Shown here: in pieces, positions 1,800 through 52,641 of the stretch
How positions within the stretch are numbered: the first letter of the stretch is position 1
How the letters are laid out: each line of letters starts with the position of its first letter
Assembly (NCBI GenBank): GCA_900767715.1
Contig: CAAGAD010000005.1
Location: forward strand, 793,673 to 857,672
Source: Clostridia bacterium
Lineage (GTDB): Bacteria; Bacillota; Clostridia; Christensenellales; UBA1242
DNA length: 64,000 bases
Direction of reading: 5' to 3'
Made by a program: the position numbers and the translations under genes
Notes under the pieces: generated by a model
Database searches by the model: none
Seen by the model: only the letters and a program-made list of their open reading frames with translations
Told to the model about the DNA's origin: nothing

Positions 1800-3347
1800 A
1801 TGGCAGTTTCAAAGGAAAAGTTGAGAATACTAAATCAAGTCAAACAGAACGAAGCCGAGTTTGAACAGTTTGTGCAAGACTGTTTGAATAGTGGTGAGTG
1901 TAGTTATGGCGATGTGGTTACTAACAACGCTCACGCTACGGGTTCGGTCGATTTGGATAGACTTATGCAACTGGTGTCGCACGTGACGCAGAGCCAAAAC
2001 GACAAAGAAGCGGTTTGGGTACAGTTGTCGGGCAATCAACCTTATTTCTATCATTTCAACGGCACAAATACTGCCAAGACCAAAGCAGGCGAGATTGAGT
2101 GCCGACTCTATCTCAATTTGAAAGCCAAAAACATTGTTCCGTTCGCCAGCGCGTTCGTTGATAAATGTGAAAAACATCGTTTGCCTTACCGATTCAAAAT
2201 CGCGGTCGATGACGTGCGTAATGACAATATTCCAATTTATACAAGTTATGCCAATGCCCAAAAGTTCTTGGACGTTATAGCCGAGATTGAAAAGGAAAGC
2301 CACGCGCTATTCGACGGCGCAGAGAATATGGGTGTGATGACGGGCAAGATTGGCAAGTTCGTCGGGTTTGGTGAAGAGTGCGTGCCAACTGATGACAAGA
2401 AAAAGATGTCGTTCAACAGCGCTCGAGCCAAGGTTTTGGGCGAGTATGTGGATAAAATTAATGACATCGCATTGAAAGAACTTTTCGCACCAAAGGTCAG
2501 CCTAAGAACTTCAAAAGGCGACAAAATGTCGGTTGACGATTATGTGATGAACAAGATTCAAGCGTGTCTGTCGCGTTCTGCCAGCAGAAGTGGGATTGAC
2601 GTGACGAGCGCGGAAAACGAGAAGCGTATCAAGGCACAACTCGGCAAGGTTTATGAGAGCATTATCGAGTTAGAAAGTAAGAACATAGATTTTGCCTTGA
2701 AAGACGGCAACGGCAATGAGCAAATTGAACGCCTTGACACAGCGCCTATCGTGGAAAAGATGATGTCGGTGTTTAGAGTGAACAAAAACGCGGACAAAAA
2801 TGTGCAAAAACTCGCCGTGGCACAAAAGATTATTGAGAGCCGTCTGCCAGATAGATTGGTGGTGAGCGAGAGCGCGAACGCACTTACGTATTTGGAAAAG
2901 ATTTTCGGGCAGAAGATTGAAATTATGCTTCAAGACAAAAAAGACTATCTAACTGCCAGTCGCACGCCGACTTTCGACTATGACATCGCACTGAGCAGAA
3001 TCAAGAGCAAGAGTAATTACGGCAAACTTGCGATTCGCAAGGCGATTGTGCAATATCTTATGCAACTCGACAATCCGCAAAGCACACACACTCCGCTTGA
3101 TGTAGATTTGAGCGCGTCGGGTGTCCAAATCGTGCTGGGCGGATTGGAAAAGACGGAAATCGAACGCGAGATATTGCAAGGGTACAATTCGAGCGTGCTT
3201 GAAATACACGATAGAGAGAAATCTCGTTTGCTCCCAGCCGTGTTTAAAGAGGAAAATGTCAGCGTTACCTTCCCATTCCTAAATCTTACGACTGAAATAG
3301 AACTAAAACAACTCTTCGCGCGTAAACCCAATTTGAAGATAAAATAA
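1800..3347 (+). CDS. hypothetical 515-aa cytoplasmic protein; N-terminal third faintly resembles the HopA1 / class III lanthipeptide-synthetase lyase-like fold family
   Basis: GAGGAG RBS 5 nt before the ATG. No signal peptide or TM. The segment RLYLNLKAKN..PYRFKIAVDDVRNDNIPIYTSY recalls a K...R-x-D...Y pattern, but this is from memory only. Confidence 0.7.
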   Translation: MAVSKEKLRILNQVKQNEAEFEQFVQDCLNSGECSYGDVVTNNAHATGSVDLDRLMQLVSHVTQSQNDKEAVWVQLSGNQPYFYHFNGTNTAKTKAGEIECRLYLNLKAKNIVPFASAFVDKCEKHRLPYRFKIAVDDVRNDNIPIYTSYANAQKFLDVIAEIEKESHALFDGAENMGVMTGKIGKFVGFGEECVPTDDKKKMSFNSARAKVLGEYVDKINDIALKELFAPKVSLRTSKGDKMSVDDYVMNKIQACLSRSASRSGIDVTSAENEKRIKAQLGKVYESIIELESKNIDFALKDGNGNEQIERLDTAPIVEKMMSVFRVNKNADKNVQKLAVAQKIIESRLPDRLVVSESANALTYLEKIFGQKIEIMLQDKKDYLTASRTPTFDYDIALSRIKSKSNYGKLAIRKAIVQYLMQLDNPQSTHTPLDVDLSASGVQIVLGGLEKTEIEREILQGYNSSVLEIHDREKSRLLPAVFKEENVSVTFPFLNLTTEIELKQLFARKPNLKIK

Positions 3348-15031: not shown

Positions 15032-18000
15032 ATGAAATCCCTAATGAAAAAAATAAGAATTTGCATTTTGGCAGTTATCTGTATGATACCGGCATTTATG
15101 TTGGCGGGCTGTACAGATGACGTGCCAGTAACGGCGATAAATTTTAGAGAAGAACGCATTGAGATGTTGGTGGGCGATAGTTACGAACCACAAGTTTTTT
15201 GCAGTCCAAATTCTGCTAGCAACAAACGCTATGGCTTGAAGTCTAACGACACAACAATTGTTACCGCTTCCGGCACGAGATTGACGGCGCGCTCAAAGGG
15301 TACAGCAATCGTAACCGCGGTGTCGAGTAGCGAGAGCAAAACCGCCAGCATTGTTGTCATTGTGTATGACAAGAGTGTGCAACTGGGCGTGCCTAGTGAC
15401 ATTAAATATGACGGCGAAGCCTTGACTTTTTCTGCCAGCGAGAACGCGTACAACTTTGATATGCGTTTGAACGGGCAAATTATTCATTTGGGCAACACAA
15501 ACACCTACCGCAATTTTGATGCGGGCAGAGTGAACACGGTTGAGATTATGGCGGTCGGCAATGGTCGAGCCACCATTAGTAGCGCATTTAGTGAAGAATA
15601 CAAATTTTTCCAAATTGCACAACCAACCAACTTGAGAGTAGAAAACGGAGTACTAACTTTTGACGCTGTGGAAAATGTGTCGAAATACAAAATCACTCTC
15701 AAAACTGATAATAACGAAGACGCTGAACAAATTGTTGACACAAATAGTCTAAATTTGAGCAATCTAATTGAAAGCGGAAAAGAATACAATATCAGCGTGA
15801 AAGCGCTAAAAGACGGCTATACAAACGAAAATTTGGACAAAAATGTTGAGATTTTCGCCAGCCGTGAGTCAGCCAGCATCGTGGTGAGCAAGTCTAACGC
15901 TCCAACGAACTTACGTATTGACAAGAATAAGTTGATATTTGACAATGCGGTAAGGCAATCGACCTTTGAGTTGGAAATCTATTCGGGCTCAAACCAAGTG
16001 CTAACTACACAATTTAATGAGGATTTTTATGACTTGTCGGCTCTTGACGCGGGCGAGTACAGCATTAAGGTTAGACAAAAGACAACTGGCACGAATGCAT
16101 TGTTCAGCGACTGGTCAATCCCACTTGTTGCGACCAAACTTGTTAGTCCAACCGTGACGATTGCGGACGGTGTAGTGAAGATTTCGGCGGTTACAGACGC
16201 TGTTGGCTACAATGTGGTAGTCAATGGCGCTGTAATCGACATTCGTGACGCCAGTGAATTTGTTTTGGGTTCATCTTTCGGCGTTGGCGCATACACAATC
16301 GGCGCGCAAGCCTATGGTGACGCGCAAACCATTATCTCAAATGTTTCGACCACAATTAGTGCGACCAAACTTGCCACACCAAGAAATCTCGCACTCAACA
16401 ATTACGTACTCTCGTTCGACGATGTGAACGACTCTGCTAGTTTCAAACTTACTGTTTCAGCCGATTTGGCTAGCGAAGTTAAGGTCAACGATATTATAGA
16501 TGTTGAAGGCAATAGTTACACATTCGCGCCTTCATACTTCGCCGAAACAACCAAGACGGACACATACAGATTGCAGTTGCAAGCATACAAGACGGGCAAT
16601 TACCTTTTGAGCGAGAAAACCGAGATATATTTGGTATATAAACTCGCCACACCACAAAATGTCAACCTAACCGACGAAAAGATTACTATTGAAAACGAGA
16701 AAATCAATATCGTGGCGGTAGAATCAACAATCGGTTACAAGATTGAATTCTACCTTGCAGACACGAATGTTTTGGTGGACGAAAAGGCCTTTACCCCACC
16801 ACAAACATACTCCGACCTACCAGCACTTGACGCGGGCAAATATTCGGTCAAGATTATGGCAACGGGCAATAACGCCAACGTGCTTGACTCGGGCATTGTT
16901 CAGTTGGACGATATCGACGTCTTGGCAATCCCAACCACTAGAGCGGAAAGTAATGCAATCATTTGGAATGCGGTGGAGAAAGCAACGGGCTATTTTATCA
17001 CTCGCGACGAAGTATTAGATGACAAACTTATTACCGACCTATCTTACAATATAGATTTGTTGGAAGCGGGCGTGTATAATTTCAAAATTCGTGCTTACGG
17101 CGATGGACAGAAAATCATCTCTTCAAAATATAGCGAAAGTCCACTAGTTATCACCAAACTCAGCCAGCCAACCGACCTTGACTACCAAAACGGCAAACTC
17201 ACGTGGAGCGCGGTTGAGGGCGCAACTGCTTACGATGTGTGCTACAAGAATGAAGAAACAGACAACATCGACTCATTCCGCGTTGGCACCAATTCGTACG
17301 ACATAGATTTCGCGAGCAAACTTGCGGGCAGTTACAACTATTATGTCATTGCGCTCGGCAACTCAAACACAGTGTTTGACAGCAAACCAAGCCAGGACAT
17401 CACCATTGTTAAACAAGCCAAGGCGACTGATTTGCGCCTTGAAGGCAATACGGTCAAATGGAATTATGACATTGACTCAACCTATGAACTGGTTGTGAAC
17501 GGCATTGTCATAGATGACCTAACAAACGGCGCGTTCGACCTAATCAAAGACTATTTGCCAATCGCAAACTTTGAAACTGCGCAAGAATACACAATCACAC
17601 TCATCACCAAGGGTGAAAGTCGCAAACTAGTGGCGGACGGCTTAGTTGTCAAGGTTGATAGTGACCCAACCGACAGCCTAGTCATCACCAAATTGGCACA
17701 AACCACTGACGTCAGCCTGTCAAGTGGTGTGCTGAAATGGAAGATTAACACATCGGCAGTGTCATATTCACTAGTGGTGGACGGCAACGTCCTGATTGAG
17801 AATGTTGCTACCAACGAAAACAATGACGCGGGTTACCAAACGTATGATTTGAATGCAAGTTTGACGGCGGGTGAGCATACTGTGGCAATCATTGCGAACG
17901 GCAATGGCGTAAACAGTTTCGATTCTAACGCGTCCAACTATTTGGCTAGCGAGATAAGACTCACAAAATTGCCAGCAGTGGAACTCAAATTCAACCCAAG

Positions 18001-21000
18001 TGTATATAACGCGAGCGATAATACCTACACAATGCCATTCATCAGTTGGAACGCCATAACCGGCGCTGACCATTACGCATTGTACATAAGGTTTGCGGAC
18101 GGCAACGACGAATTGACCGACAGTCTTGGCTCAATCACGGGCACAAGTTACAGCCTTGAAAACATCGACAAGGCGGGCGATGTGACCTTTATGGTTAGGG
18201 CTTATGGTAATAGCAACGACATTTTGTACAGCGATTTCGCCGAAATGAATATCGAACGCCTAAATGCACCAAAACTGGTTGTCGCAAATGGCAAACTCAG
18301 TTGGGAAGGAGTTTTGAATGCCAATAGTTATCTGTTGTTCGTTCAAAACCCAGCCACCAGCGTTTACGAACTCGTTGACGAATACGCCGGCATTGCAAGT
18401 TACGACTTTGCAGACCGCACGGCAGGCGCGTATGACGTGCGCTTGATTGCGCGCAATAGCCTATCGCAAGCCGAAATCAAATACGCGGACAGTGTAATGG
18501 CAGAGATGACTGTCACAAAACTTAACACTCCAATCAACTTCACCGTTTATGACGGCAAGTTCAAGTTTGATATGGTGACGGGCGCAGAAGGCTACGAAAT
18601 TACAATCGGCAAATACAAGCACAAAATCGGCGCCGACCAAACCAGCGATTTGGAATTACATTCAATGCTAGCCGAGCGCGTTGAGGACGCCAAACTTGTG
18701 GCGACCGCCGACGGCAAAATAACCAGTTCACCAACCACGATCAAGGTGAGAATGCTCAGCAGTCCACTTGGTGTGAAGATGGTGGGCGGAAACATTGTTT
18801 GGGACAAAATCCAGTTGCCAGAAGGCAGTAGCGACGCAGAATACGTGGTTACCATACAAAAGGGCACTGATGTAGAAAAGTTTGACGCGGGTGTAAACAC
18901 TTCACTTGCCTTCCCAGACTTAAATTGGGGCACGGGCGAATATTACATCTACATTCAAGCCAAATCGGGCGTCTATCTGGATAACGGCGAATTGGTTTAC
19001 CAGACCATAAGCCCATACTCCACAACCTACACAGTTATCATTCAAGACTCGGTGTCCATCATTCAATCGGTTGACGGACTTCTCAGTTGGGGAAGCATTT
19101 CCACAGCGGTTGGCTACAATGTGAAAATCGTTGACGCCAGCGGTCACGAAAACGTGGTTTATGTGACAGACGCAAGTTTCGATATGAGCGATTATGTCGG
19201 GTTTAGAACGGTCAGCGTTATGACCAAAGGCAATGGCGAAAACATTCTAGACAGCGATTATTCTATGCCAGTGCACGTCATCACAATGCCAAAAGTCGAA
19301 ACAATCGGCTTGGTTGACGGCAAGGTAACTTTCGATGCAGTCAGCATATTTAACCGCGCTAAACTCACATTCACTAGTGTGGACAATAGCCTATTATTCT
19401 ACGAATTTGATTGCTCACCAAGTTTGTTCGACGGCGCAAATAACGCTAAGACGTGGGCAAATATCGTAGAAACATTCGGTACAGATTACACCAACTGGAA
19501 TTACACTAATGTATTTAACACTATTAACAATAGTTACATTCTAAATAAACAAATCAACATTCCTAAGGGCTCATATAAGTTGACTATCAAGTTGATAGGC
19601 AACACCCACGCGGGCAGTGTTGACTTGGCAAAGGGCAATATCATTGTTGCTTCCAGCCAGACCAGTGTCGCCGTAGAAATGGAAAAACTCGGCACACCAA
19701 TCGTCAATGTCGATGACGGCATTATCTCTTGGGCGTCGAGTGCAAGTTATGCCGAATTGAAAACATTCAATGTTTACGTTCAACGTGTTTACAAAGAAAA
19801 TAACGAAAGTAAGACAGAAATCCACACCTTCCAAACAAATGTGGATTGGTCATACAACAACATTAGTTCAATCGACTTCAAACAAAATAGTTTCGCTTAC
19901 ACCGACCTAAACGGTCAGTCAAGGACAATTACTTTTGGCGAGGCGGGCGAATATAAGGTTTATGTAAGTTTGCAAGGCGACAGCACGAAATATTTGACAA
20001 GTAATGATTCAAATATTGAGAGCGTACGCATTCTTGAAGACCCAGAAATCAAACAGATTGCGGGCGAAATGACTTGGGAAACAATTCCTTATGCCACCGA
20101 GTATAGAATCGACTACACAATCAATGAATCGTCAAAATCATTGTATGTAATGGGCGACAGAATCAACTTTGTCACAGACTTCACTGACACCAAGGGCATT
20201 ACTCACACCTTCCCAGCGGGCGAGTACGATTTGAGAATCTTCGCTGTCGGCAATGGCAAAGACATTCTCAACTCAAAATCGGGTAAGCGTTACACCAAGC
20301 GTAAACTCGACATCGCCGACGCGCAATTTACACTCACAGAAGGTTTACTTGAATGGAACATAGTAAGTAATATGGCTTACTACTATGTAGATATTGACAA
20401 CGCATACACCAGCCAATACGGCGGAATCATTGTCAACGCGAACGAACCAAACGAAAGTTTGAAGTTCGACAATGTAAACAACGTGCTGACCTATGAAATC
20501 CCTACCAACCGTGTGGTCGGCATTCACAGTGTTCGCATTTACGCAATCGGCGACAACGAAAGTCTGTTGAGTTCAAGTTTCTCGAAAGTTATAACAGCCG
20601 AAAAACTTGTGGCACTTTCTACTCCGTCACTCAATGGTGGCAGATTGGAATGGCTTCCTAACGGCAACAATAGGTCGGGCTTCGATATCAAAGTGTCATT
20701 CATTGACGACGAAGGCTACACAATCAGTTTCATCAAGAACATCAACGAATCAACATTTATCTTGCCAGACAGCGTCACACTTTCAAATGGTATCGTTTAC
20801 CAGTTGAACGGACGCGACTATACGGTTTGGGTCAAGGTTCGTGGCACGAGTTATCGTGAGACGGGTGGAAACTATTTCAATAGTGACTACTCGAACGAAC
20901 TAGGCTTCGCAAGATATGACGACATAACCAATGTTCACACCACCAAGGGCGAATTGACTTGGACGGAAGTAAACAACGCCGACAACTATTACATCACAAT

Positions 21001-23002
21001 CGGTGGACTCGAAGTTTATACTGACAACACTTTGCTTGCACAAGACAATTTGTCATCACTTGCGGGCGGTCAATATTTGGCGACTATTTGTGCAATGGGC
21101 AATCGTCAATATATGACTTCACGCATAACGACAACAAGTTATTTGACCAAGTTTGACAGTCCAACAGGGCTCAAAACAGACGGAACAAAGATTGTCTGGG
21201 ACGCAGTGGAGAACGCAACCGGTTATAGAGTGGAACTCGGCAAATTGAACGACGCTGGCGAGTATGAAATTCAGCCTATTGAAACCACAACTGACAACAA
21301 CTTCACCTTGCCTAGCAGTTATGACGGACTTACTTTCAAGGTTCGTGTAATGGCGATTTCGCTTGAAGATAATGACAATTATCTCAACAGCGAATGGTGC
21401 GAAGAATGCATTGTGAATAAGGCAGAGCCAATCAGCAATTTGCGATTTGACGATGTCAACAAGCAATGGGTATGGACAGCGCCAGAGAGCGTGGATAAAT
21501 ACGTCATCAGTTATCGTCTAAACGGCAACAATACGGAAACCGAAACAATCAGCGGAGCGTACGCATACTTCAAGCCACAAAAACTCGGTGTTTACAGTGA
21601 GTTCGGCGTGCAAGTAGCACCTCCAACCACTCAGACGACAATGCTCCTATCCGACATTGTTTACTGGGAAAGCACGGACGACCAGGGCGTCGTGTATAAA
21701 CCAACCTACAATTTCAATATGTTCAATGCGGGCTACGGCACAGCAGAAAGTCCATACGAAATTGTGAGCGTGGAACAATTCATCAACATCAACTATTACA
21801 GCGACAAACATTTCATCTTGAAACGTAATATCGAATCAAGCAAAACTTATTTGAGCGCACTTGTTGGCGAGTTTACAGGCGTATTCAATGGAGATGGTAA
21901 GACTATCTCCAAGATAACCATTTCGACCGACAAATCGAACGCAGGTTTGTTCGGCATACTAACGGACGCAACGATTAAGAATTTGACTTTGGCGAACATT
22001 AGCGTAACCAACACATCATCTAGTGCGAACTATGTCGGCGTGTTGGCGGGCAGAATCGAGAAATCAAACATCGACGCGGTGACAATCAACGCGGGAGTTG
22101 TGGCTAGCGAAATCAAGGTTCAAAGATACGCTTATGTAGGCGGTTTGGCAGGTATGATTAGTGATAGCGTAATCAACAATATTGGTGTGAATATCACCGT
22201 CAACAATAACGTCAACAATGAAATCGCACTTGCTATTTACTCAGCAGGTTTGACCGCGATGTCAACCAACAGCACACTCACAAGCATTAGAGTGGGCTTG
22301 ATAGACCGTTCACAAGTCAACTCAACCTATCGTCTTGCAGGAATTGTCACAATGCTTGACGGCGGAACGTTGACCGATTCTTATGCAACTCTCGATAACG
22401 CGTCATCTAACTATGCAGACCATATCGGTGGTGTAGTTGAAACCAACAAGGGCACAATAGATAGTTGTTTCGCAACTGGCAAAGTGACCGTTCGCGGTAT
22501 TGCAAATGCTAACTATCAGCGTAATGGCTATGCAGGCGGTTTGGTCGGCACAAACGACTCTAACGGCACAATCAAGAACTGCTATGCTCAACTCAGCATT
22601 GTGGTAACGACCAACATTTCCGCAACATCTGGTGATTATCGAGTGGTAGTTGGCGGTCTGGTTGCAGTCAACGCGGGCTTAATCGATAACTCTTGGGTTG
22701 TCATCGCCAACGGCTATGCAACACTCACCAAGAGCGCAGAAAACACAGAATGCGTAATCAATGCTTTCGTTGGCAAAAACACTACAACCTATTCACAAGA
22801 AGGTTACACTTATGGCATCAAAAACTGCTATCAATATATTGACGGTGGCGCAAATTCGGGTGGCATCAGTCAAATGGATAGCGTGGCAAGTATGATGACA
22901 GAAGCGTTCAAGAAAACACTCAACACAAACGCTGGCAAAGACATCTACAATACAACAAACTCAGGTTTGCCAGAGTTCTTGTGGCAAAGCAAATTAATCT
23001 AA
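15032..23002 (+). CDS. giant surface lipoprotein/adhesin: lipobox, Big_2 domain, about 23 Fn3-like modules, C-terminal GLUG-type repeat region
   Basis: 2656-aa uninterrupted ORF. Lipobox MLAGC. Big_2-like VTAINF...GTAIVTAVS. Modules recur with P-x-N-L...G-x-L-x-W..V..A..Y; the Y-x-V-x-A-x-G part of the pattern is not met exactly in every module. C-terminus has SPYEI..EQF...FTGVFNGDGKTI..AGLFG...IKNLTL..VGGLAG (GLUG-motif pattern). Confidence 0.9.
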   Translation: MKSLMKKIRICILAVICMIPAFMLAGCTDDVPVTAINFREERIEMLVGDSYEPQVFCSPNSASNKRYGLKSNDTTIVTASGTRLTARSKGTAIVTAVSSSESKTASIVVIVYDKSVQLGVPSDIKYDGEALTFSASENAYNFDMRLNGQIIHLGNTNTYRNFDAGRVNTVEIMAVGNGRATISSAFSEEYKFFQIAQPTNLRVENGVLTFDAVENVSKYKITLKTDNNEDAEQIVDTNSLNLSNLIESGKEYNISVKALKDGYTNENLDKNVEIFASRESASIVVSKSNAPTNLRIDKNKLIFDNAVRQSTFELEIYSGSNQVLTTQFNEDFYDLSALDAGEYSIKVRQKTTGTNALFSDWSIPLVATKLVSPTVTIADGVVKISAVTDAVGYNVVVNGAVIDIRDASEFVLGSSFGVGAYTIGAQAYGDAQTIISNVSTTISATKLATPRNLALNNYVLSFDDVNDSASFKLTVSADLASEVKVNDIIDVEGNSYTFAPSYFAETTKTDTYRLQLQAYKTGNYLLSEKTEIYLVYKLATPQNVNLTDEKITIENEKINIVAVESTIGYKIEFYLADTNVLVDEKAFTPPQTYSDLPALDAGKYSVKIMATGNNANVLDSGIVQLDDIDVLAIPTTRAESNAIIWNAVEKATGYFITRDEVLDDKLITDLSYNIDLLEAGVYNFKIRAYGDGQKIISSKYSESPLVITKLSQPTDLDYQNGKLTWSAVEGATAYDVCYKNEETDNIDSFRVGTNSYDIDFASKLAGSYNYYVIALGNSNTVFDSKPSQDITIVKQAKATDLRLEGNTVKWNYDIDSTYELVVNGIVIDDLTNGAFDLIKDYLPIANFETAQEYTITLITKGESRKLVADGLVVKVDSDPTDSLVITKLAQTTDVSLSSGVLKWKINTSAVSYSLVVDGNVLIENVATNENNDAGYQTYDLNASLTAGEHTVAIIANGNGVNSFDSNASNYLASEIRLTKLPAVELKFNPSVYNASDNTYTMPFISWNAITGADHYALYIRFADGNDELTDSLGSITGTSYSLENIDKAGDVTFMVRAYGNSNDILYSDFAEMNIERLNAPKLVVANGKLSWEGVLNANSYLLFVQNPATSVYELVDEYAGIASYDFADRTAGAYDVRLIARNSLSQAEIKYADSVMAEMTVTKLNTPINFTVYDGKFKFDMVTGAEGYEITIGKYKHKIGADQTSDLELHSMLAERVEDAKLVATADGKITSSPTTIKVRMLSSPLGVKMVGGNIVWDKIQLPEGSSDAEYVVTIQKGTDVEKFDAGVNTSLAFPDLNWGTGEYYIYIQAKSGVYLDNGELVYQTISPYSTTYTVIIQDSVSIIQSVDGLLSWGSISTAVGYNVKIVDASGHENVVYVTDASFDMSDYVGFRTVSVMTKGNGENILDSDYSMPVHVITMPKVETIGLVDGKVTFDAVSIFNRAKLTFTSVDNSLLFYEFDCSPSLFDGANNAKTWANIVETFGTDYTNWNYTNVFNTINNSYILNKQINIPKGSYKLTIKLIGNTHAGSVDLAKGNIIVASSQTSVAVEMEKLGTPIVNVDDGIISWASSASYAELKTFNVYVQRVYKENNESKTEIHTFQTNVDWSYNNISSIDFKQNSFAYTDLNGQSRTITFGEAGEYKVYVSLQGDSTKYLTSNDSNIESVRILEDPEIKQIAGEMTWETIPYATEYRIDYTINESSKSLYVMGDRINFVTDFTDTKGITHTFPAGEYDLRIFAVGNGKDILNSKSGKRYTKRKLDIADAQFTLTEGLLEWNIVSNMAYYYVDIDNAYTSQYGGIIVNANEPNESLKFDNVNNVLTYEIPTNRVVGIHSVRIYAIGDNESLLSSSFSKVITAEKLVALSTPSLNGGRLEWLPNGNNRSGFDIKVSFIDDEGYTISFIKNINESTFILPDSVTLSNGIVYQLNGRDYTVWVKVRGTSYRETGGNYFNSDYSNELGFARYDDITNVHTTKGELTWTEVNNADNYYITIGGLEVYTDNTLLAQDNLSSLAGGQYLATICAMGNRQYMTSRITTTSYLTKFDSPTGLKTDGTKIVWDAVENATGYRVELGKLNDAGEYEIQPIETTTDNNFTLPSSYDGLTFKVRVMAISLEDNDNYLNSEWCEECIVNKAEPISNLRFDDVNKQWVWTAPESVDKYVISYRLNGNNTETETISGAYAYFKPQKLGVYSEFGVQVAPPTTQTTMLLSDIVYWESTDDQGVVYKPTYNFNMFNAGYGTAESPYEIVSVEQFININYYSDKHFILKRNIESSKTYLSALVGEFTGVFNGDGKTISKITISTDKSNAGLFGILTDATIKNLTLANISVTNTSSSANYVGVLAGRIEKSNIDAVTINAGVVASEIKVQRYAYVGGLAGMISDSVINNIGVNITVNNNVNNEIALAIYSAGLTAMSTNSTLTSIRVGLIDRSQVNSTYRLAGIVTMLDGGTLTDSYATLDNASSNYADHIGGVVETNKGTIDSCFATGKVTVRGIANANYQRNGYAGGLVGTNDSNGTIKNCYAQLSIVVTTNISATSGDYRVVVGGLVAVNAGLIDNSWVVIANGYATLTKSAENTECVINAFVGKNTTTYSQEGYTYGIKNCYQYIDGGANSGGISQMDSVASMMTEAFKKTLNTNAGKDIYNTTNSGLPEFLWQSKLI
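15368..21700 (+). repeat. array of about 23 diverged tandem 80-130-aa Fn3-like coding modules
   Basis: Module boundaries read from the protein (K-L-x-x-P-x-N-L junctions). The repeats are diverged at the DNA level, so no long identical nucleotide repeats were seen. Confidence 0.7.
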
Positions 23003-23094: not shown

Positions 23095-23655
23095 ATGGAT
23101 TATAGTTATCAAAACTATCGCGACAACGAAATCAATCTACCTAAAATGTTGAGCGACTGCTTATGGATTATTGTCAAAGCCGTGGTATTCACCTTGGCTT
23201 TGCTAGTGCTTTTTGGCTTAGTTTTTGGCTATAAGCCATATCTGGTCATTAGCGGAAGTATGACACCTACGCTTATCGAGAACCGCGACATCGTAATCGT
23301 GAAGAAGATTGATTACGACAAATACCAAATTGGCGACATCATCACCTTTACCAAAGACGACGGCAAAACAATGTGCACGCACCGCATTGTCACAATCGAC
23401 TTTGACGAAGACGGCCATCGCACAGGCATCAACACGCAAGGCGACTGGAAAGACAATTCGCCTGACAACAATCATCTCACCGACGACCAAATCGTAGGCA
23501 AAGTGGTGGCAATCTATCGTGAATGGGGCGCGGTATATTTCTTTATTCGCAACAATTTATATCTCTGCATAGCACTCGTGCTTACCATATATATGGGGGT
23601 TACCTTGCTGGAAGCCAATTACGAATATTTGAAAAAACCGGTCAAATTTGAATAA
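23095..23655 (+). CDS. sipW: signal peptidase I, SipW / ER-archaeal type (S26B)
   Basis: SGSMTPTL serine box, CTHRIV histidine box, N-terminal and C-terminal TM segments. 186 aa, close to my recollection of B. subtilis SipW at about 190 aa. Confidence 0.85.
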   Translation: MDYSYQNYRDNEINLPKMLSDCLWIIVKAVVFTLALLVLFGLVFGYKPYLVISGSMTPTLIENRDIVIVKKIDYDKYQIGDIITFTKDDGKTMCTHRIVTIDFDEDGHRTGINTQGDWKDNSPDNNHLTDDQIVGKVVAIYREWGAVYFFIRNNLYLCIALVLTIYMGVTLLEANYEYLKKPVKFE

Positions 23656-23708
23656 TATCGCTTTACAATTTTATGTCTTATTTTGTAGAATAGATATAAG
23701 GAAGGACT

Positions 23709-26129
23709 ATGCACACATCAAGCAAAAGGAACAATAGGCTATTATCAATACTATTGATGGTTATGGCAATAGTGCTTCTTTTGGGTGGACTAGGCTTCAC
23801 TTTGGCGGGCAAACGCACAAGTTTTGTGACGAAAAAGGCCTCCAATACGACCTACACCAATGCAAGCACCAAGACATTTTTGGATAACTCTACACTTGAA
23901 TATCCTATCGATTACAAAATCGGTTCGGTAGCAAGACAGATTTCGGCTTATACCTACTCAACCACTGCGCAATATTTGGCGTATAGCGTAAGTTTTAGAT
24001 ATGTCACGGTAACCGCCAGCACGGGCGCTGCGACCAATGCGAACAAGGCGGTCAACAATATCAATATCATTCCATTCATTGACAGAGATTGGTATTTTGA
24101 CCAGAATCATTCCATTCTGTATAGACGTTCGGCATTGCAAGCCACCAGTTCGACTAAAAAAGCAATGACTACAATCTTAACCGGTGTTGAATTCTTCGAC
24201 AACACCAACGGCGTATATTATTCGGGTTGCAAATTGCAAATCATTCTCACGCCAACCACATATAGTTCATCGGCAATTCCAACAAACGGGGTTACGGTTT
24301 ATAATGTTTCAACCAATGTAAACTATGCAATCGGCTCATTCCGCACACCAATCTATGTGCGCAACAATAGTTCGTCTGCACAAGGATTGACATTCACGGT
24401 TGACGCCGGTTGGTACAATTCTTCTGACACAGCAGTTTCTGGCTTGCCAAGGAACAAAATTAAACTAAATTTGAGCAACAACTATTTCACAGGCTACAAT
24501 GGTGGGAATAATACTGAATCAAACAGCAGTCTTTACACTTCGTCTTACGCTCCATCTGGCAATGCAAATGCAAATGAAATCACCGATTCGGACGCATTGC
24601 AATATGGCGGTAGTTACACATACAGATGTAATGTTCTGGCTGGCGAAATTGTTCCAATCATTGATAGCATTGAAATCATCAATGTCAACTGGACGGGTAA
24701 TGGCGAATCAGATTACGCTGGTACTCACGTGAAGATTTCACTCGGCAGTTGTTCACTAACCACTTTGTCTAGCCCAAAAACAAGTTTGACAGGTGGCACG
24801 ACTTATAATGTCACTAACGGCGCTACCGTTCTGCCAATTGATTTGACAGGTGTGACAAGTGGTTGCACTCTCGAAAGAAGCGCCGTATATTCTACTTTGG
24901 CAGATACGACATTATCAGTTAGTTACAATTACTATATCGCTTATTGGGTGCAATACATCAGTGGTAATAGCAGCGATAGTACTAATACTTATGATATCGT
25001 TGCGGGTGAATATGCAGTCTTGCCAGTGACAAAGGGCGTGTCAGTTGCCAAACGTCAAGGGCAGGCTTGGAGTGATAACAATTACAAACAAAGTCTTACA
25101 AAGGGCAGAACAGTATCGCTCTTTGATACAGTGACCATTGCTTCAACGATGACTGTGAACGGCACCAGCGTAACAGTCAATTCCAGTCTTGCTACTGCAC
25201 TCAAAAATATCAAAGTAAGCAGTAGTACAAACACTTACACAGATTCATTCGGCATTTCGGGACGTATCGTTCCTAGCAGTTATACTCCACGTTGTTATTT
25301 GATAATAAAACCTACTATCACAACCAATTCCAGTGCGTCAACAGCCACTGACTTTGCAAGTGAAGTTTTGATTTCACAATCAGCAATGAGTATTAGTACA
25401 TCTGCCGTGCCATACACTGTGGCAATCAAAAATACTTCAACACTAGTTTATTCATCGGCAATAATCACTCTTACAGGTATAAATATAAATTCATTCACAT
25501 TAGGGCTCAATACTGGTTGGAGTTGGAATGGAAACCAAGGACAACTTACCTATTCTGGCGCGATTAAACCAGGACAGACAGTGGTAGCAGTCGGCAGTGC
25601 GACTGGCTCATCAAGTGCGATTAACTATGGTACTGCAAGTATGACAACCAGTTCAAGCGAAACGATTGACAACGTCGTAGTCATTGACGAAACTCAAACC
25701 AAGGGCGTTTATATGCAAAACGCCACTACTGGCATCAACTACACGGGCGATGCAAATAGTTCGACCAAGAAAATTCACATTATCAACACATCATCGAACA
25801 TGTATTATATTCGTGTGATGATTGCACCAAAATATATGAAAGCGGGCGCAACTGGAACGGGAACACTTACATTCACAGCCACCGACTACACCAAGTTGTC
25901 GGGCGCACACACCTATTACTACAACAAAATACTTCTTCCGGGTCAAGAAATTGAACTTGGCGGAGTGACAATCACTGCCAACTCTAGCAACACGGGCACA
26001 AGCGTGATTTACAACCCAACCGTTGCTTCATCAGTGGTAAGCACGACGTCGTTTGCTGTGCCATCTGGCTGGGACGCATCTTCGATGTCCAAGGTTCAAA
26101 GTTTCTACAGAATCGTATTCCAAAAATAA
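23709..26129 (+). CDS. 806-aa S/T/N-rich secreted protein with a SipW-cognate-like signal peptide
   Basis: AAGGAAGGA RBS. N-terminus KRNNRLLSILLMVMAIVLLLGGLGFTLA|GKRT. No LPXTG or C-terminal TM, and no enzymatic motif seen. Confidence 0.8.
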   Translation: MHTSSKRNNRLLSILLMVMAIVLLLGGLGFTLAGKRTSFVTKKASNTTYTNASTKTFLDNSTLEYPIDYKIGSVARQISAYTYSTTAQYLAYSVSFRYVTVTASTGAATNANKAVNNINIIPFIDRDWYFDQNHSILYRRSALQATSSTKKAMTTILTGVEFFDNTNGVYYSGCKLQIILTPTTYSSSAIPTNGVTVYNVSTNVNYAIGSFRTPIYVRNNSSSAQGLTFTVDAGWYNSSDTAVSGLPRNKIKLNLSNNYFTGYNGGNNTESNSSLYTSSYAPSGNANANEITDSDALQYGGSYTYRCNVLAGEIVPIIDSIEIINVNWTGNGESDYAGTHVKISLGSCSLTTLSSPKTSLTGGTTYNVTNGATVLPIDLTGVTSGCTLERSAVYSTLADTTLSVSYNYYIAYWVQYISGNSSDSTNTYDIVAGEYAVLPVTKGVSVAKRQGQAWSDNNYKQSLTKGRTVSLFDTVTIASTMTVNGTSVTVNSSLATALKNIKVSSSTNTYTDSFGISGRIVPSSYTPRCYLIIKPTITTNSSASTATDFASEVLISQSAMSISTSAVPYTVAIKNTSTLVYSSAIITLTGININSFTLGLNTGWSWNGNQGQLTYSGAIKPGQTVVAVGSATGSSSAINYGTASMTTSSSETIDNVVVIDETQTKGVYMQNATTGINYTGDANSSTKKIHIINTSSNMYYIRVMIAPKYMKAGATGTGTLTFTATDYTKLSGAHTYYYNKILLPGQEIELGGVTITANSSNTGTSVIYNPTVASSVVSTTSFAVPSGWDASSMSKVQSFYRIVFQK

Positions 26130-26139
26130 AGGGTAAAAG

Positions 26140-26751
26140 ATGAGAGATAGTAAAAACAAAGCAAGGTTTGTTAGCGTATTCACATTGACAATGTGCTTTG
26201 TTTTGGCACTCATAATTTTACCTGTGACATACGCATATTTGACTAAGCACAAATATGTCGGCGGAGCAATTACGGTTGCCACAATTAGCCTAGACGCGCA
26301 GAACTCGTCTAGCACAACGATTGTTGGCAAAACTGTTACACTAGGCGAGGCTGATTCCAGCGATATCTACAATTATACTGCCAAGGTAAAAAACACCGGT
26401 AGTGCAAGCGTAATTATTAGATTTTATGTTGGACTCATCAATAGTTCGGGCGCTGTGGTAAAGACCACCGCAATCGAACCAGTGCTTGCAGATAGTTCAA
26501 ATTACACTTGGGTTGGTGATGGAAGCGGTTACTACTATTTATCAACAACGGCGGGCAAAAGATTGACCGTTGCGCATAACGGCACGTACAATATGCTCAC
26601 AGGCTTCCAAATCAACGATCCATCGGGCACATTAGATAGCAGTATCGATAGTGACGGCAATGTTACATTCGGCTTGCAAATACAAGCCGTGCAATACAAT
26701 ATCGGTTCTAGCCTTTCTAGCGTTTGGACGAACATTCCATCGAACTGGTAA
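26140..26751 (+). CDS. TasA/camelysin-like small secreted protein (putative fibre subunit) with SipW-cognate signal peptide
   Basis: 10-nt gap after the upstream gene, with RBS. Signal ...LALIILPVTYA|YLTKHKYVGGAITVATISLDAQN resembles the TasA junction GGGTWA|AFND...ATFASGTLDLSA as I recall it. Confidence 0.7.
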   Translation: MRDSKNKARFVSVFTLTMCFVLALIILPVTYAYLTKHKYVGGAITVATISLDAQNSSSTTIVGKTVTLGEADSSDIYNYTAKVKNTGSASVIIRFYVGLINSSGAVVKTTAIEPVLADSSNYTWVGDGSGYYYLSTTAGKRLTVAHNGTYNMLTGFQINDPSGTLDSSIDSDGNVTFGLQIQAVQYNIGSSLSSVWTNIPSNW

Positions 26752-26767
26752 TTAAAAGGAGTAGCAG

Positions 26768-27340
26768 ATGAAAACAAAGAATATTCTTGGCAAAGTGTTC
26801 ACATTAGTTGCTTTTGTTTTCGTGTGCATAATTGCTATTAGTTCGACGAGTGCCTGGCTAACAACCAATCCAAACAAAACCACATTTGTCATCACTTATG
26901 GTGAAGTAAACTTCCAGTTGGTAGGTAATAGCACGGTGGCGGGTTATTCCACCTCCGCGAGCGACATTATCGCTGACTCAAAGACGCCTAGCAATGACAA
27001 AGGCTTTATGTTGCCAACTAGCATTAACAGGAATGGTACATACAATCAAAGATTCGCAATCAAAAATGTGGAAAGTTCAACAATCTACGTTCGCGTAAGA
27101 TTTACCACATATTTGAACGACTCAACGACGGCAGCCGTTTTCGCTCAGTCGTTGACTCCAAATACAAGTTGGACATACAATTCATCTAGCAACTATTATT
27201 CAGCAACAATCTCAGCAAGTACGACCACCAACATTTGTACTCAAATGAAAGTTGGCTCGATTGCAAATAGCACTTTTGTAAGACTGAAAATCGAGATAGA
27301 AGCAGCCTCTGCAGCCAATAAGTTTACTAGTTTAGTTTAA
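26768..27340 (+). CDS. TasA/camelysin-like small secreted protein (second putative fibre subunit)
   Basis: AAGGAG RBS, 16-nt gap. Signal ...CIIAISSTSA|WLTTNPNKTTFVITYGEVNFQL. 190 aa. Confidence 0.65.
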   Translation: MKTKNILGKVFTLVAFVFVCIIAISSTSAWLTTNPNKTTFVITYGEVNFQLVGNSTVAGYSTSASDIIADSKTPSNDKGFMLPTSINRNGTYNQRFAIKNVESSTIYVRVRFTTYLNDSTTAAVFAQSLTPNTSWTYNSSSNYYSATISASTTTNICTQMKVGSIANSTFVRLKIEIEAASAANKFTSLV

Positions 27341-27372
27341 AAAAAATATATGGAATTAACCATATATTTTTT
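27339..27372. terminator. bidirectional terminator between the fibre operon and dut
   Basis: A-run, ATATATGG-AATTAA-CCATATAT, T-run. Confidence 0.7.
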
Positions 27373-27820
27373 ATTTACCGGTGCTACCGAAACCACCCTT
27401 TCGTGTACCTGTGGCGTTGTCGTCATCGGCGATAAGATATTTCATAAAAATGCCTTGACCAATTTTCTCGTTTTGTTCAATAGTGATAGGTTGGTCGGTG
27501 TTGTTTTTTAGCAAAAAACCTAGATTGCCGTCATTGGTTGGATTGCCATAATAATCCGCGTCAATTATGCCTACGCCGTTAGCCAAACTCATTCCGCGCT
27601 TGCCAAAACTACTGCGATTGCATAGCATCAAAAACTCGTCATCTTCGCACACAAATTTCATATTTGTGAAAACGCATTCGTGTGAGTGTGGAGCAATGGT
27701 AATTTGCACTGGACTAAAAAAGTCATAGCCGGCAGCCTTGCTCGTGGAACGCACGGGCATTGGCACGTTATTGTTGTTGTATTTCACTGCCCAGTCGGCA
27801 ACGCGTTCAAATCTTCTCAT
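27371..27820 (-). CDS. dut: dUTP diphosphatase
   Basis: AAGYDF, GIIDADY and C-terminal RKGGFGSTG motifs. Start chosen at the ATG 6 nt after AGGAG (27820); the track ORF extends to 27871. Confidence 0.85.
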   Translation of the reverse strand: MRRFERVADWAVKYNNNNVPMPVRSTSKAAGYDFFSPVQITIAPHSHECVFTNMKFVCEDDEFLMLCNRSSFGKRGMSLANGVGIIDADYYGNPTNDGNLGFLLKNNTDQPITIEQNEKIGQGIFMKYLIADDDNATGTRKGGFGSTGK

Positions 27821-27959
27821 ATTCATCTCCTGTATGTTTAGATTATAGCACAAATTAATGCCAACGTTCAAACAATTTGTGAATATAGGTGTTAATCGTT
27901 TGATTAAACTTTTGTTTTTGTTGTAAAATTAGATTGAATAATAGTCAAAAAATTCCATA

Positions 27960-27988
27960 TTGACAGCGTAAAAATTTTATTATATAAT
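27960..27988 (+). promoter_or_regulatory. sigma-A-type promoter of the 28013 gene
   Basis: TTGACA (27960-27965), 17 nt, TATAAT (27983-27988). Confidence 0.6.
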
Positions 27989-28012: not shown

Positions 28013-30832
28013 ATGGCTACGAGTAAAGAAAATGTGCAGAAGATTTTATCTGGCGAATTAAGTTTCAATTCGGTCAAATCTCCCGAAGAGTTGAAACTCT
28101 TATACAACGCTGGCTTGACATCGAAAGATTTGCGTAAATTGGTGATTGACGGCAAAATTGACGTGCAAAGTTTAAGCGCGAAGATGCTTTACGAATTGGT
28201 GATGCGCGATGTGCTCCGCGTACGCAATGCCGAATACACAGACAACACCGTGCCGAGAGCCGTTTCAGCCGAATGGAACAATGATTTTGAAGATGAAACC
28301 AACGAAGGCAGTGTCGAAGTTGTAAACGGTGTGCCAGTTGTGTATTTAGGCAGAATTAAGAATTATGGTTTGACTGACACTCAAAAGACCAAATTTGAAA
28401 AGGCCAACAGCAGAATGCCAAAGGTTGACCCGGCAGACATTGAAACAACCAAACCAATCGGTGAAGTAGTTGAAGATAGTGAAAGGCATACCGGTGGAGC
28501 AGTTGAACCACAAATTACTAAACTGCCTGACCCAACTGACGACGATGAGCCGGAAAACGAAAATGAAGAATCGGTAAAAAAATCTGCACCAAAGAAACCA
28601 GAGCCACCAACACCACGAGACTTCGCTATTCCAGATGGTGATGATGTTGACGAAGACGAGGACGAATTGAATGACCCAAGCATTGCTGGTGAGTCGGTCG
28701 AAATGGGTGAAACACCAGAAGAAGAAGTCGAGGATGTCCAACGTGAGTTTTACGGACTCCCTGAAAAAATTAGGAAACATAAATATGCATTTGAGCGTGA
28801 AGACCACGTCCGCGTGCCAATCTCACTCGCTCCAACACATATCAACCTAAAATACGTTCAAAATTTTGACATCGCAACACTTGAAGCGTCGTACCAACTT
28901 TTCCTAGGTGACGCCTATGGTTCTAGCCAAGCGAAAAAATGCATTGACGACTTAAAAGGCGCGTGCAAAGACTCCAAGAGCTTGAAAGTGAACAAAATCA
29001 AGGATTCGCCAGCAAAGTTCAAGACGGCAATGGAGCGTTTAAGTTGCCTATTCACCTATGACATTGATTTGAAGAAAATCAATTACAGCGTGCTCGACAA
29101 ATGGGCTCAAAAGAAATACGAAAGCGACCCTGAAAAATATAAAAAATTCTTGAAAACGATTGTTCTGCTCAACGACCCTAACAACAAGGAAATTACAGAA
29201 GCCAATCGCGACGAGATTAAGCAAGCCAAAATAAACCTTGCCAACTACATCGGCGAATACGAAGCCGATTTGCACAAAAATGATTTGGCTTATCAAAAGA
29301 AAATTAAAAGCATTCTTGATATCACAGCCGTAACCGGCGCTAGCATTGTGGGCGGTTTGGCAATGAGATATCTAATGGCGATACCTAACCATTTGGGTGA
29401 CCCTTGGGGACTGTTGATGCTCTGTTTGAGTGTGAACGGCGTACCAGTGGTCGGTATTATGGCAGGTCTTGCCTTGGCAAGTGGCGCAGTGCTAGTAATT
29501 GCGAAAATCATTAAAGCCCGTATTGACAATGTCAAGAAGTACAACAAGCAAACCAAGGCTTTGAAGAAGACTGCACAAGACCTTGCCGGTCATAAACAAG
29601 GTTTGTCCGCAATTAGAAAAAAATATGCTTTAATTTCACCAGATATGTCTGCTGACGAAGTCGCTGGCATTATGGCTGATAGCGAACCAAAGACCAAAGA
29701 AGAAAAAGCCCAAGCCAAGAAAGACAAAGAAATTCTTGACGTGGAAGACGCATTGCAACTTATTGCAGACGGTGATTTGAGCAAAAGATTGTCAAAGAAA
29801 AAATCTTTGGCTGGCAAACGTAATCTAACCAAGAGAGTGGAACAACAAGTCAAAGACGACATCATCTATGCGTTGACTCACGAAACACCTGAAACGAAAG
29901 CCATTTTAGACAATAGCGGACTGCAAGGTTTGTATGTGGCAAGACTGGCAGTTGCACTAGAACAAGCAAAGAAAGGTCAATTTGAAAGTTTGCGTGACAA
30001 ACAACTCGCTTACGATTTGGCACAACTGCGAAAGGCAAATTCAAAGAAGCCGATTGTCGCTGTGGAAGTAGTTAGTCCAGAGGGCAAAAAGATTGTGGAA
30101 ACCACCAAACTGGGAATGGACCGCAAACTTACGCCAGAAGAGTATGAGTCAATTCGTCAAGCCGCTCTTGAAGGCAATATCAGTGAAACCAACTTGCGCC
30201 TAGTATGTGAAGCGCAAAGAAAACTCGACGAAGAGTTTGTCATAAAAGCCTTGCAACAATCGCGTAAAGAACAAAAGAAAATTGCAACAGCCGATATGAA
30301 GGCAGAGTTGAAGGCGTTGGAGAAAAAGCAATTAACAGACGAGGACGGAAAGGTTTACACCAAGAAAGAAATTGCGAAATCTACCAAAGAAACTAAAAAA
30401 GCGTTGAAGAAAGCGGGCGACAAAGACGCGCTTGAATTAATGGAAAAAACGGCGAAAGAAAAGCAAGACCAATATCTTGCCGCTCGTCAAGCAATCATTG
30501 ACCACGCACAAGAAAATGCCGAAGCAGTCGGTCACAGCACAATCATCAAGAAACTACTCGACAACGGGGCAGAAAAAAGAGAAGCCGAAGAAACCGCTAA
30601 ATTCAAAGCAAAAAAGAAAGCCGAGCAAATTGAAATCAACAAAGAAACTTGGCATCAAATGGGACACGAGATTGCGACCGGTCTGAAAAAATTGGGCAAA
30701 TCTATTGGCAAGCCATTCCGCGCAATGTTTCCACCAAAAGATGCACAAACGGGAACAACGCTTGGTGGCAGTCCAACCAGCGCGAAAAACGCCACAAAGA
30801 CAACAAAAACAAAAGGCGGAATCTCTAGATAA
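28013..30832 (+). CDS. 939-aa highly charged protein with a central TM hairpin; function unknown
   Basis: AAGGAG RBS and consensus promoter. No signal peptide. Acidic D/E/P tract around aa 170-240, hydrophobic segments around aa 440-500, K/E-rich predicted coiled coil over the C-terminal 430 aa. Confidence 0.85.
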   Translation: MATSKENVQKILSGELSFNSVKSPEELKLLYNAGLTSKDLRKLVIDGKIDVQSLSAKMLYELVMRDVLRVRNAEYTDNTVPRAVSAEWNNDFEDETNEGSVEVVNGVPVVYLGRIKNYGLTDTQKTKFEKANSRMPKVDPADIETTKPIGEVVEDSERHTGGAVEPQITKLPDPTDDDEPENENEESVKKSAPKKPEPPTPRDFAIPDGDDVDEDEDELNDPSIAGESVEMGETPEEEVEDVQREFYGLPEKIRKHKYAFEREDHVRVPISLAPTHINLKYVQNFDIATLEASYQLFLGDAYGSSQAKKCIDDLKGACKDSKSLKVNKIKDSPAKFKTAMERLSCLFTYDIDLKKINYSVLDKWAQKKYESDPEKYKKFLKTIVLLNDPNNKEITEANRDEIKQAKINLANYIGEYEADLHKNDLAYQKKIKSILDITAVTGASIVGGLAMRYLMAIPNHLGDPWGLLMLCLSVNGVPVVGIMAGLALASGAVLVIAKIIKARIDNVKKYNKQTKALKKTAQDLAGHKQGLSAIRKKYALISPDMSADEVAGIMADSEPKTKEEKAQAKKDKEILDVEDALQLIADGDLSKRLSKKKSLAGKRNLTKRVEQQVKDDIIYALTHETPETKAILDNSGLQGLYVARLAVALEQAKKGQFESLRDKQLAYDLAQLRKANSKKPIVAVEVVSPEGKKIVETTKLGMDRKLTPEEYESIRQAALEGNISETNLRLVCEAQRKLDEEFVIKALQQSRKEQKKIATADMKAELKALEKKQLTDEDGKVYTKKEIAKSTKETKKALKKAGDKDALELMEKTAKEKQDQYLAARQAIIDHAQENAEAVGHSTIIKKLLDNGAEKREAEETAKFKAKKKAEQIEINKETWHQMGHEIATGLKKLGKSIGKPFRAMFPPKDAQTGTTLGGSPTSAKNATKTTKTKGGISR

Positions 30833-50252: not shown

Positions 50253-50270
50253 TTTATTCTTCTCCTCCAA

Positions 50271-50277
50271 TGTCGAA
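50271..50277 (+). promoter_or_regulatory. candidate 0A box (TGTCGAA) in the spo0A upstream region
   Basis: Exact TGTCGAA just upstream of the spo0A RBS. A near-copy AGTCGAA lies at 50373-50379. Confidence 0.35.
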
Positions 50278-50509
50278 CATTTCAAAGATACCACAAACTG
50301 TAATTTGAACCAAAAAGAAAAACCCATTATTTTGGTAAAAACTGGCAAAAAACATCTAAAATTCAAAATCAAAGTCGAAATCGGTAGTGCATTGTTGAAA
50401 ATAAGTTGAAAAAATAAATTTTTGTATGTTATTTTGTTTCCTATTTAATATAAAAAATCGTTCTATTTAAGATTTTGACGAATATATTATACTAAAAGTT
50501 GGAGGACTT

Positions 50510-52018: not shown

Positions 52019-52037
52019 CTCAAAACACGACAAAAAA

Positions 52038-52633: not shown

Positions 52634-52641
52634 GAGAATTT

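Follow-up and report, generated by a model that had tools for sequence, protein, structure and literature searches.

A SipW-type signal peptidase cassette of an uncultured gut Clostridium as a candidate TasA/BsaA-like fibre module

In biofilms of Bacillus and Clostridium, the main protein scaffold consists of TasA/BsaA-type fibres, whose superfamily extends well past the proteins that Pfam recognises. The question raised by the locus described here is whether it encodes a fibre of this kind that lies beyond the reach of the current family models. The locus is part of a 64,000-nucleotide stretch of DNA from an uncultured Clostridium of the human gut (contig CAAGAD010000005.1, referred to below in its full length as the window), in which a gene for a 186-amino-acid (aa) signal peptidase is followed by genes for secreted proteins of 806, 203 and 190 aa and preceded by a gene for a giant lipoprotein of 2656 aa. 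A first-pass annotation, made from the letters alone, had read the peptidase gene and its three followers as a SipW-type operon that builds a TasA/BsaA-like fibre. We consider it probable, while keeping some reserve, that the block, from a spore-forming gut Clostridium, does encode a far-diverged extracellular fibre or matrix module of SipW/TasA type (BsaA-like). We favour this TasA-type reading because a TasA fibre structure (PDB entry 8aur) ranks first, by a narrow margin, among the structural matches to a model of the 203-aa protein, because distant relatives of that protein match the Peptidase_M73 and TIGR04088 models and because the 203- and 190-aa proteins are distant paralogues.

The peptidase and its gene cassette

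The 186-aa protein scored 80 bits against TIGR02228, the hidden Markov model (HMM) of archaeal/endoplasmic reticulum (ER)-type signal peptidase I, for which the cut-off is 51.85. Its score against the bacterial-type model TIGR02227 was 40.8 bits (under the cut-off of 47), that against Pfam Peptidase_S26 was 33.8 bits, and that against NF046067, the equivalog model of Bacillus SipW, was 55 bits, far under the cut-off of 190. The sole solved sequence relatives found in the PDB were human SEC11A and SEC11C. The serine box SGSMTPT (residues 53-59) and the T-H-R of the histidine box THRIV (residues 95-99) align with SGSMEP and V-H-R of SEC11A, i.e., with serine and histidine boxes and not with a Ser-Lys dyad. 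Hydropathy analysis located membrane segments at both ends of the protein, at residues 18-54 and 147-175, so that both the Ser-His type and the two membrane segments given in the first-pass annotation were confirmed. Since TIGR02228 was passed, TIGR02227 and NF046067 were failed and SEC11A/C are the only solved relatives, we conclude that, judged by its sequence, the protein is a SipW-type enzyme and not an orthologue of Bacillus subtilis SipW.

The four genes that start with the peptidase gene lie on one strand and form a compact unit with intergenic gaps of 53, 10 and 16 nucleotides. Purine-rich stretches resembling ribosome-binding sites (AGGAAGGA, AAAGGG and AAGGAG) precede the starts of the 806-, 203- and 190-aa genes; this layout, too, had been described correctly, and its coordinates stand. 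No tandem DNA repeats are present in the region.

The same gene order recurs in related loci. In the window, in L001, L002 and L004, and in L007 and L008, the giant lipoprotein gene is followed by the peptidase gene and then by genes for proteins of ~800, ~200 and ~170-190 aa. For the giant, the peptidase and the 806-, 203- and 190-aa proteins, taken in this order, the identities are 80, 85, 71, 65 and 77% in L001/L002/L004 and 32, 49, 36, 28 and 27% in L007/L008. The four genes of the peptidase operon are therefore real, since orthologues of all of them occur in the same order both at 65-85% identity (L001) and at 27-49% (L007). The giant of L007 keeps its 32% identity over ~2250 aa and is located directly upstream of the peptidase gene, as in L001. 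The downstream flanks differ: L007 and L008 carry an extra 294-aa gene and then SecA, and the window carries a dUTPase gene and a 939-aa orphan. Because the cassette recurs at 27-49% identity with different flanks, the 2656-aa lipoprotein is a conserved cassette partner and not a coincidental neighbour. Thus, the block of peptidase, 806-, 203- and 190-aa genes is conserved in relatives, and the giant adhesin that had been placed simply beside it does lie directly upstream, as a cassette member in its own right. The giant gave weak Pfam matches to Big_2, Glug and fn3. A scan of genome collections with the close orthologues located the cassette in a single metagenome-assembled genome, from a Hadza gut metagenome.

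A stem-loop lies at the 3' side of the giant-gene stop codon (Table 1). Counterparts follow the giant-gene stop at L001:6874-6912 and L007:6713-6746 (z = -5.4); the structure is kept in both loci, and the L007 sequence differs. Between this hairpin and the peptidase gene there is a conserved TATACATA...ATAA stretch. The hairpin probably acts as a terminator, or else in RNA stability or processing, and would divide the giant gene from the peptidase operon; taken together with the conserved stretch, it may represent a terminator followed by a promoter, or else an RNA-processing site. Its conservation suggests that the giant gene is a separate or attenuated transcription unit. A second hairpin, located directly after the 190-aa gene and between it and the convergent dUTPase gene, likely serves as a bidirectional terminator that closes the operon.

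The small subunits and their resemblance to TasA

As revealed by hydropathy, each of the three secreted proteins has one N-terminal hydrophobic segment, ending in T-L-A33 in the 806-aa protein, T-Y-A32 in the 203-aa protein and T-S-A29 in the 190-aa protein, in agreement with the signal peptides with T-x-A ends that the first-pass annotation had listed. In the two small proteins the signal peptide spans aa 1-32 and aa 1-29, respectively, and the junctions (a slash marks the predicted cleavage site) read T-Y-A/YLTK and T-S-A/WLTT. On visual inspection, the resulting T-x-A-[W/Y]-L junction is common to both proteins and is also present in distant relatives.

Word-indexed homology searches returned 5-7 close orthologues for each small protein and almost no added depth. 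When 1.84 billion representatives were searched exhaustively with a HMMER profile, 11 matches with an expectation value (E) <= 1e-3 were obtained for the 203-aa family, so divergent is the clade that this locus of an uncultured human-gut Clostridium adds. The distant relatives share a [S/T]-x-A-[W/Y]-[L/F] junction, an N-x-G-S...Y-V-R strand pair with an invariant Arg, a G-Y-Y-Y motif and a C-terminal ...E-A-x-Q... strand, and the 190-aa protein aligns in register with the family. Some of the relatives are recognised by models of the known systems. P0021 scored 26.4 bits against Peptidase_M73, over the gathering cut-off of 22.5, in a match that covers the first ~60 residues only, and P0018 scored 16.9 bits. 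TIGR04088, the model of the SipW-cognate signal peptide, was matched by two of the 14 family members scanned (best E 1.2e-4), and one relative each matched the TasA and TapA models, weakly. A profile built from the core alone, with the signal peptide removed, recovered P0013 with 40 bits, P0018 with 31 bits and the syntenic orthologue P0014 with 27 bits.

The two small proteins are, from their sequences, distant paralogues, and a beta-sandwich core is predicted for them. Family-to-family comparison of the 203- and 190-aa proteins with hhalign gave E 1.7e-4 over 128 columns, and the core-only score was 22.2, compared to 12.8 ± 2.3 (maximum 20.1) for shuffled controls. More distant family members occur in tandem arrays of 2-4 small paralogues (L009, L013 and L015). 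Genes for TasA, CalY and BsaA are likewise found in tandem paralogue arrays.

Two large relatives, P0015 (1279 aa) and P0019 (1387 aa), each contain six separate matches to the 203-aa profile, the best of them within profile positions 109-182. This suggests, at the level of sequence profiles, that the central part of the subunit fold recurs as a repeated module in big surface proteins.

The fold of the 203-aa protein was modelled with AlphaFold. A first run with eight close orthologues reached a predicted local distance difference test (pLDDT) score of 52; the fold search performed with this model returned generic beta-sandwiches only (p53 and PapG), and the model was disregarded. A second model, based on 23 diverse family members, had a pLDDT of 75 and a predicted template modelling (TM) score of 0.65. 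Its all-beta core is predicted with a pLDDT of ~88-90, while residues 31-44, which follow the predicted cleavage site, are below 50; in this model the flexible N-terminal segment is a candidate donor strand. When the second model was compared by Foldseek with 350,542 PDB chains, the cryo-electron microscopy structure of the TasA fibre (8aur_A) ranked first, with E 5.8e-3, probability 0.99, 214 aligned columns and TM scores of 0.39/0.35. The weak matches included a PapG pilin domain.

Several results weigh against the TasA-type reading. The 806-, 203- and 190-aa proteins gave no match even at E <= 1 to Peptidase_M73 (PF12389), TasA (NF046066), TapA or TIGR04088, so that the HMM comparison with TasA/camelysin and SipW-cognate models proposed along with the first-pass annotation came out negative for all three; nothing relevant was retrieved by scans of Pfam and NCBIfam. 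P0021 scored just 12.6 bits with the core-only profile, and for this reason it is mostly its signal peptide and first strand that carry the bridge to the TasA family. No TasA chain was found when the family profile was searched against PDB sequences, and hhalign of the family against TasA (a query identical to 8aur over residues 28-261) gave a score of 17, which is within the shuffle range and not significant. Searches of the PDB by phmmer or profile, whether started from the 203-aa protein, the 190-aa protein, the family profile or the 806-aa family, retrieved chance matches only (ubiquitin, L25 and orotate phosphoribosyltransferase). TasA was not recovered with the first, low-confidence model, and with the second one the margin over CBM3, reeler and other beta-sandwiches (E ~1e-2) is thin, the TM score for TasA itself being only 0.39. 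That the three proteins are cleaved by this particular peptidase we infer from gene adjacency. Finally, BsaB of Clostridium perfringens, which forms dimers at most (PMC11580942), is an example of a TasA-like protein that belongs to such an operon and does not polymerise. The top rank of 8aur is modest evidence for a TasA-like fold of the 203-aa protein, in view of the E and TM values and of the generic beta-sandwiches close behind.

One can ask whether the resemblance to SipW and TasA is a coincidence, and the locus simply combines a general signal peptidase with three unrelated secreted beta-rich proteins. The missing direct HMM matches to TasA, camelysin and SipW-cognate models, and the generic beta-sandwiches that score near TasA, agree with this; so does the fact that the S26 serine box of the peptidase is the sole instance within the 64-kb window. 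The peptidase gene, however, keeps the same four partner genes while identities fall to 27-49% and the flanks change. The shared junction recurs in relatives that match TIGR04088 and Peptidase_M73, TasA took the top rank among all PDB chains searched, and a second giant protein of the window has an A-K-A signal peptide, unlike the T-x-A-[W/Y]-L class. We consider a coincidence quite improbable.

The 806-aa protein and a possible fibre assembly

The 806-aa protein consists of a signal peptide (aa 1-33, ending T-L-A), ~610 beta-rich residues and a C-terminal subunit-like domain. Ser and Thr make up 27% of its residues, and Asn about 8%. A profile-profile comparison aligned its signal peptide with the one of the 203-aa protein, the T-x-A end being common to the two. 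Neither Pfam nor NCBIfam nor the PDB contained a family, domain or structure that matched the protein; in particular, there was no VWA and no TapA (TIGR04087) match. Its orthologues in L001 (71% identity), L007 (36%) and L005 (44%, C-terminal part) align end to end, and a metagenome scan with the family retrieved near-identical copies only.

The C-terminal domain was identified by hhalign, which aligned segment 646-806 with the small-subunit profile A4 with a probability of 83.5, E 8.3e-6 and a score of 40.1. Sixty column shuffles scored 12.3 ± 2.1 (maximum 17.3), and the reversed sequence scored 13.9. Within the segment, it is residues 686-788 that align with residues 78-203 of the 203-aa protein, and the P-S-G/N-W motif at the end is part of the match. 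The profile alignment thus makes the 806-aa product a protein with one subunit-like domain at its C-terminus, and not simply a third subunit. The earlier proposal of two small subunits plus one large member needs correcting for the large one, of which only the C-terminal ~100-150 residues (aligned over 686-788) are subunit-like. Comparisons of internal segments of the 806-aa protein with each other revealed weaker similarities (scores 25-27), and the protein may, judging from these scores, be a chain of divergent domains of the subunit kind.

A large protein of >724 aa is encoded at L015:1-2175, directly upstream of two small family members. It has a ...T-I-F-T-G-V-D-F-x-D-S-T... stretch in common with the N-terminal half of the 806-aa protein, with 30% identity over 223 columns. 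The hhalign comparison of this fragment with the 806-aa protein gave E 0.051, which is suggestive only, so homology of the large proteins is unproven beyond the close clade.

The first-pass annotation knew of no described system with this gene set, which is too strong a statement in view of sipW-bsaA-bsaB-bsaC of C. perfringens (CPE0514-0517), a locus whose genes specify a signal peptidase, a pair of TasA-like proteins and a large secreted one (PMC11580942; Obana et al. 2020 as cited there). Polymerisation of BsaA proceeds by donor-strand exchange, and the superfamily of TasA and BsaA is known to go well past IPR022121 (PMC11580942). This is the closest described system. In both loci a SipW-type peptidase comes first, two small proteins and one large protein are encoded on the same strand, the subunits are without LPXTG, and the sequences have diverged so far that TasA is not detected at the level of BLAST. 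The order, however, is peptidase-large-small-small in the window and peptidase-small-small-large in C. perfringens, and the large protein of the window ends in a subunit-like domain and has no vWA domain, whereas BsaC has one. The window is without an adjacent sortase or two-component regulator, contains a co-conserved giant lipoprotein, and encodes proteins that fail the Peptidase_M73 model. Indeed, the block yielded neither a TapA nor a sortase/LPXTG nor a regulator, as had been noted before. What sets the locus apart is the gene order, the lack of an adjacent sortase or regulator, the subunit-like domain in place of vWA, the co-conserved giant lipoprotein and a divergence beyond current family models.

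In B. subtilis, the freed N-terminal strand of TasA completes the beta-sandwich of the next subunit (PMC9674648), and TapA supplies the nucleating strand (PMC10151520). The tapA-sipW-tasA locus shares with the window a dedicated ER/archaeal-type peptidase and a T-x-A junction followed by a short N-terminal segment. TasA (8aur) is also the best structural match to the predicted beta-sandwich core, and the motif order is akin to that of the window subunits: the junction, then ...N-x-G-S..., then a C-terminal ...L-x-F-x-x-E-A-x-Q-x-N strand. Unlike the B. subtilis proteins, those of the window have no detectable sequence homology to TasA or TapA; the subunits are smaller than TasA (~170 vs. 234 aa in mature form) and without its helical insertions, they form a pair of paralogues that no TapA accompanies, and the peptidase reaches 55 bits where the SipW equivalog model calls for 190.

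Two further systems offer partial parallels. In the bundling pili of the archaeon Pyrobaculum calidifontis, AbpA is a ~200-aa TasA-like jelly-roll subunit that is detectable only by profile or structure comparison, and AbpB is a larger signal-peptide protein with multiple beta-domains, proposed to be filament nucleator and adhesin (PMC9245690). As in the window, the gene of a small subunit adjoins that of a larger beta-rich protein; the archaeal locus, however, has no dedicated peptidase, and the TapA-like domain of AbpB is N-terminal, whereas the subunit-like domain of the 806-aa protein is C-terminal. The FimH and PapG tip adhesins of chaperone-usher pili, each made of a lectin and a pilin domain, resemble the 806-aa protein in combining a subunit-like C-terminal domain with a different, beta-rich N-terminal module. 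This is a functional analogy only, with no homology claimed, and the organism of the window is Gram-positive, with no chaperone or usher in play.

By analogy with TasA and BsaA, we infer the following course of export, cleavage, polymerisation and incorporation of the 806-aa protein. Sec would export the three proteins, and the dedicated peptidase would cleave them after A33 (806 aa), A32 (203 aa) and A29 (190 aa). The freed N-terminal strand of a small subunit would then insert into the beta-sandwich of the next one, and donor-strand exchange would in this way produce a sortase-independent fibre. The 806-aa protein would join the fibre via its C-terminal subunit-like domain, with its ~610-aa N-terminal part serving as an adhesin, a cap or a nucleator and in this way matching TapA, AbpB or BsaC in function. 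The giant lipoprotein, probably transcribed separately, would be a co-functioning surface adhesin. The architectural idea contained in this scheme is that of a large protein that plugs into a fibre by a single subunit-like domain and is co-inherited with a giant lipoprotein. If confirmed, this idea would carry the tip/shaft logic of Gram-negative chaperone-usher pili over to SipW-dependent fibres and offer a way into how gut Clostridia adhere and form matrix.

The polymerisation step has a competing explanation, in which export and processing by the dedicated peptidase take place as above and the products remain monomeric or dimeric surface or matrix accessories, for example partners, chaperones or coats of the giant lipoprotein. 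The giant is the most strongly conserved neighbour, BsaB is likewise at most dimeric (PMC11580942), the TasA fibre is a weak fold match and polymerisation is argued here by analogy. We nevertheless regard such non-polymerising accessories as unlikely: two paralogous subunits with a flexible segment after the cleavage site, together with a large protein carrying one subunit-like domain, fit a fibre plus accessory better, and the tandem paralogue arrays of relatives resemble pilin/fibre loci. If there is no polymerisation, the locus is one more example of lineage-specific secreted proteins that come with a peptidase of their own.

In L007, L013 and L015, an extra gene closes the small-subunit array (L007:11154-12038, L013:2217-3011 and L015:3501-4040). 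In the encoded proteins, a cytoplasmic N-terminal extension of 55-130 aa precedes the membrane segment, and a T-x-A-[W/Y] junction is not obvious. The family HMM detected a subunit-like ectodomain in those of L007 (E 4.6e-8) and L013 (E 1.6e-9); the gene of L015 runs off the contig end, and its match, at E ~1e-3, is over the membrane segment only. On these sequence features, the array-closing proteins are candidates for uncleaved membrane anchors of the fibre. No gene of this type is present in the window cassette.

A more elaborate form of the TasA-type reading can be put forward only tentatively, and we would not yet expect it to hold: a sortase-independent Gram-positive donor-strand pilus with a shaft of two TasA-like subunits, the 806-aa protein as a FimH-style end piece that displays ~610 aa of novel beta-rich adhesin, the 2656-aa lipoprotein as surface partner and, in L007, L013 and L015, anchors. 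If true, such a modularity of tip, shaft and anchor would be one that has yet to be described among TasA-type fibres.

The host and other features of the window

The coordinates of the cassette and of other features of the window are given in Table 1.

Table 1. Location of the cassette, its RNA signals and other features in the window
Feature	Coordinates	Strand	Remarks
HopA1-family protein gene	1800-3347	+	515 aa
Giant surface lipoprotein gene	15032-23002	+	2656 aa; lipobox MLAGC; many Ig/FN3-like repeats; C-terminal GLUG-motif region
Stem-loop 3' of giant-gene stop codon	23000-23039	+	-22.1 kcal/mol, z = -4.3; site also marked by terminator scan
Peptidase gene	23095-23655	+	186 aa; SipW-like ER/archaeal-type signal peptidase I
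S/T/N-rich secreted protein gene	23709-26129	+	806 aa
C-terminal subunit-like domain of 806-aa protein	25764-26072	+	aa 686-788; hhalign to small-subunit core
203-aa small subunit gene	26140-26751	+	
190-aa small subunit gene	26768-27340	+	
AT-rich hairpin	27341-27372		13 bp, flanking A/U runs; -12 kcal/mol, z = -3.9; 0/200 shuffles as stable
dUTPase open reading frame	27371-27871	-	166 aa; TTG start
Promoter-like site before 939-aa gene	27960-27988		TTGACA-17-TATAAT, perfect 12/12
Orphan gene	28013-30832	+	939 aa
Sporulation cluster	49488-54908		Spo0A (- strand), SipL/SPOCS-domain protein, SpoIIR, SleB-like cell-wall hydrolase overlapping YpeB homologue
Second giant protein gene	55322-63358	+	2678 aa

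The window comes from the chromosome of a spore-forming Firmicute; its genes include DnaB_2/DnaI-type replication genes, WhiA, MurB, DnaE and UvrC. The sporulation cluster that it contains marks the host as an endospore former.

The first description of TasA was that of a spore-associated, SipW-processed protein. A module of the same mechanism could differ in timing and location from the one proposed above and build a spore-surface appendage or coat-associated fibre in place of a vegetative biofilm fibre. The host forms spores and has Spo0A, SipL, SpoIIR, SleB and YpeB within the same window, yet these genes lie >20 kb away from the cassette; the array of a relative (L013) adjoins GerA-family germination genes, and the PDB lists TasA under the name 'spore coat-associated protein N'. 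There is, on the other hand, no sporulation-specific promoter or regulator evidence, and we consider a spore-surface role very improbable.

The second giant protein, with its ordinary signal peptide, carries a basic tail behind its C-terminal membrane anchor and gave only a weak Bact_surface_Ig-like match. The 939-aa orphan, which is preceded by the promoter-like site, is highly charged, with hydrophobic segments in the middle of the protein (about 464-504). It is present with 61% identity downstream of the cassette in L001, is absent in L007, and has no family match. Both it and the giant proteins were considered as members of the subunit family and were rejected, with no similarity on testing. 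The L001 orthologue of the dUTPase is called with 149 aa, and the first ~17 residues of the open reading frame listed in the window are probably untranslated. Finally, the 515-aa protein matches the HopA1 effector family (PF17914) with E 6e-7, over the cut-off; this family is named for a Pseudomonas type III effector and is unexpected in a Clostridium.

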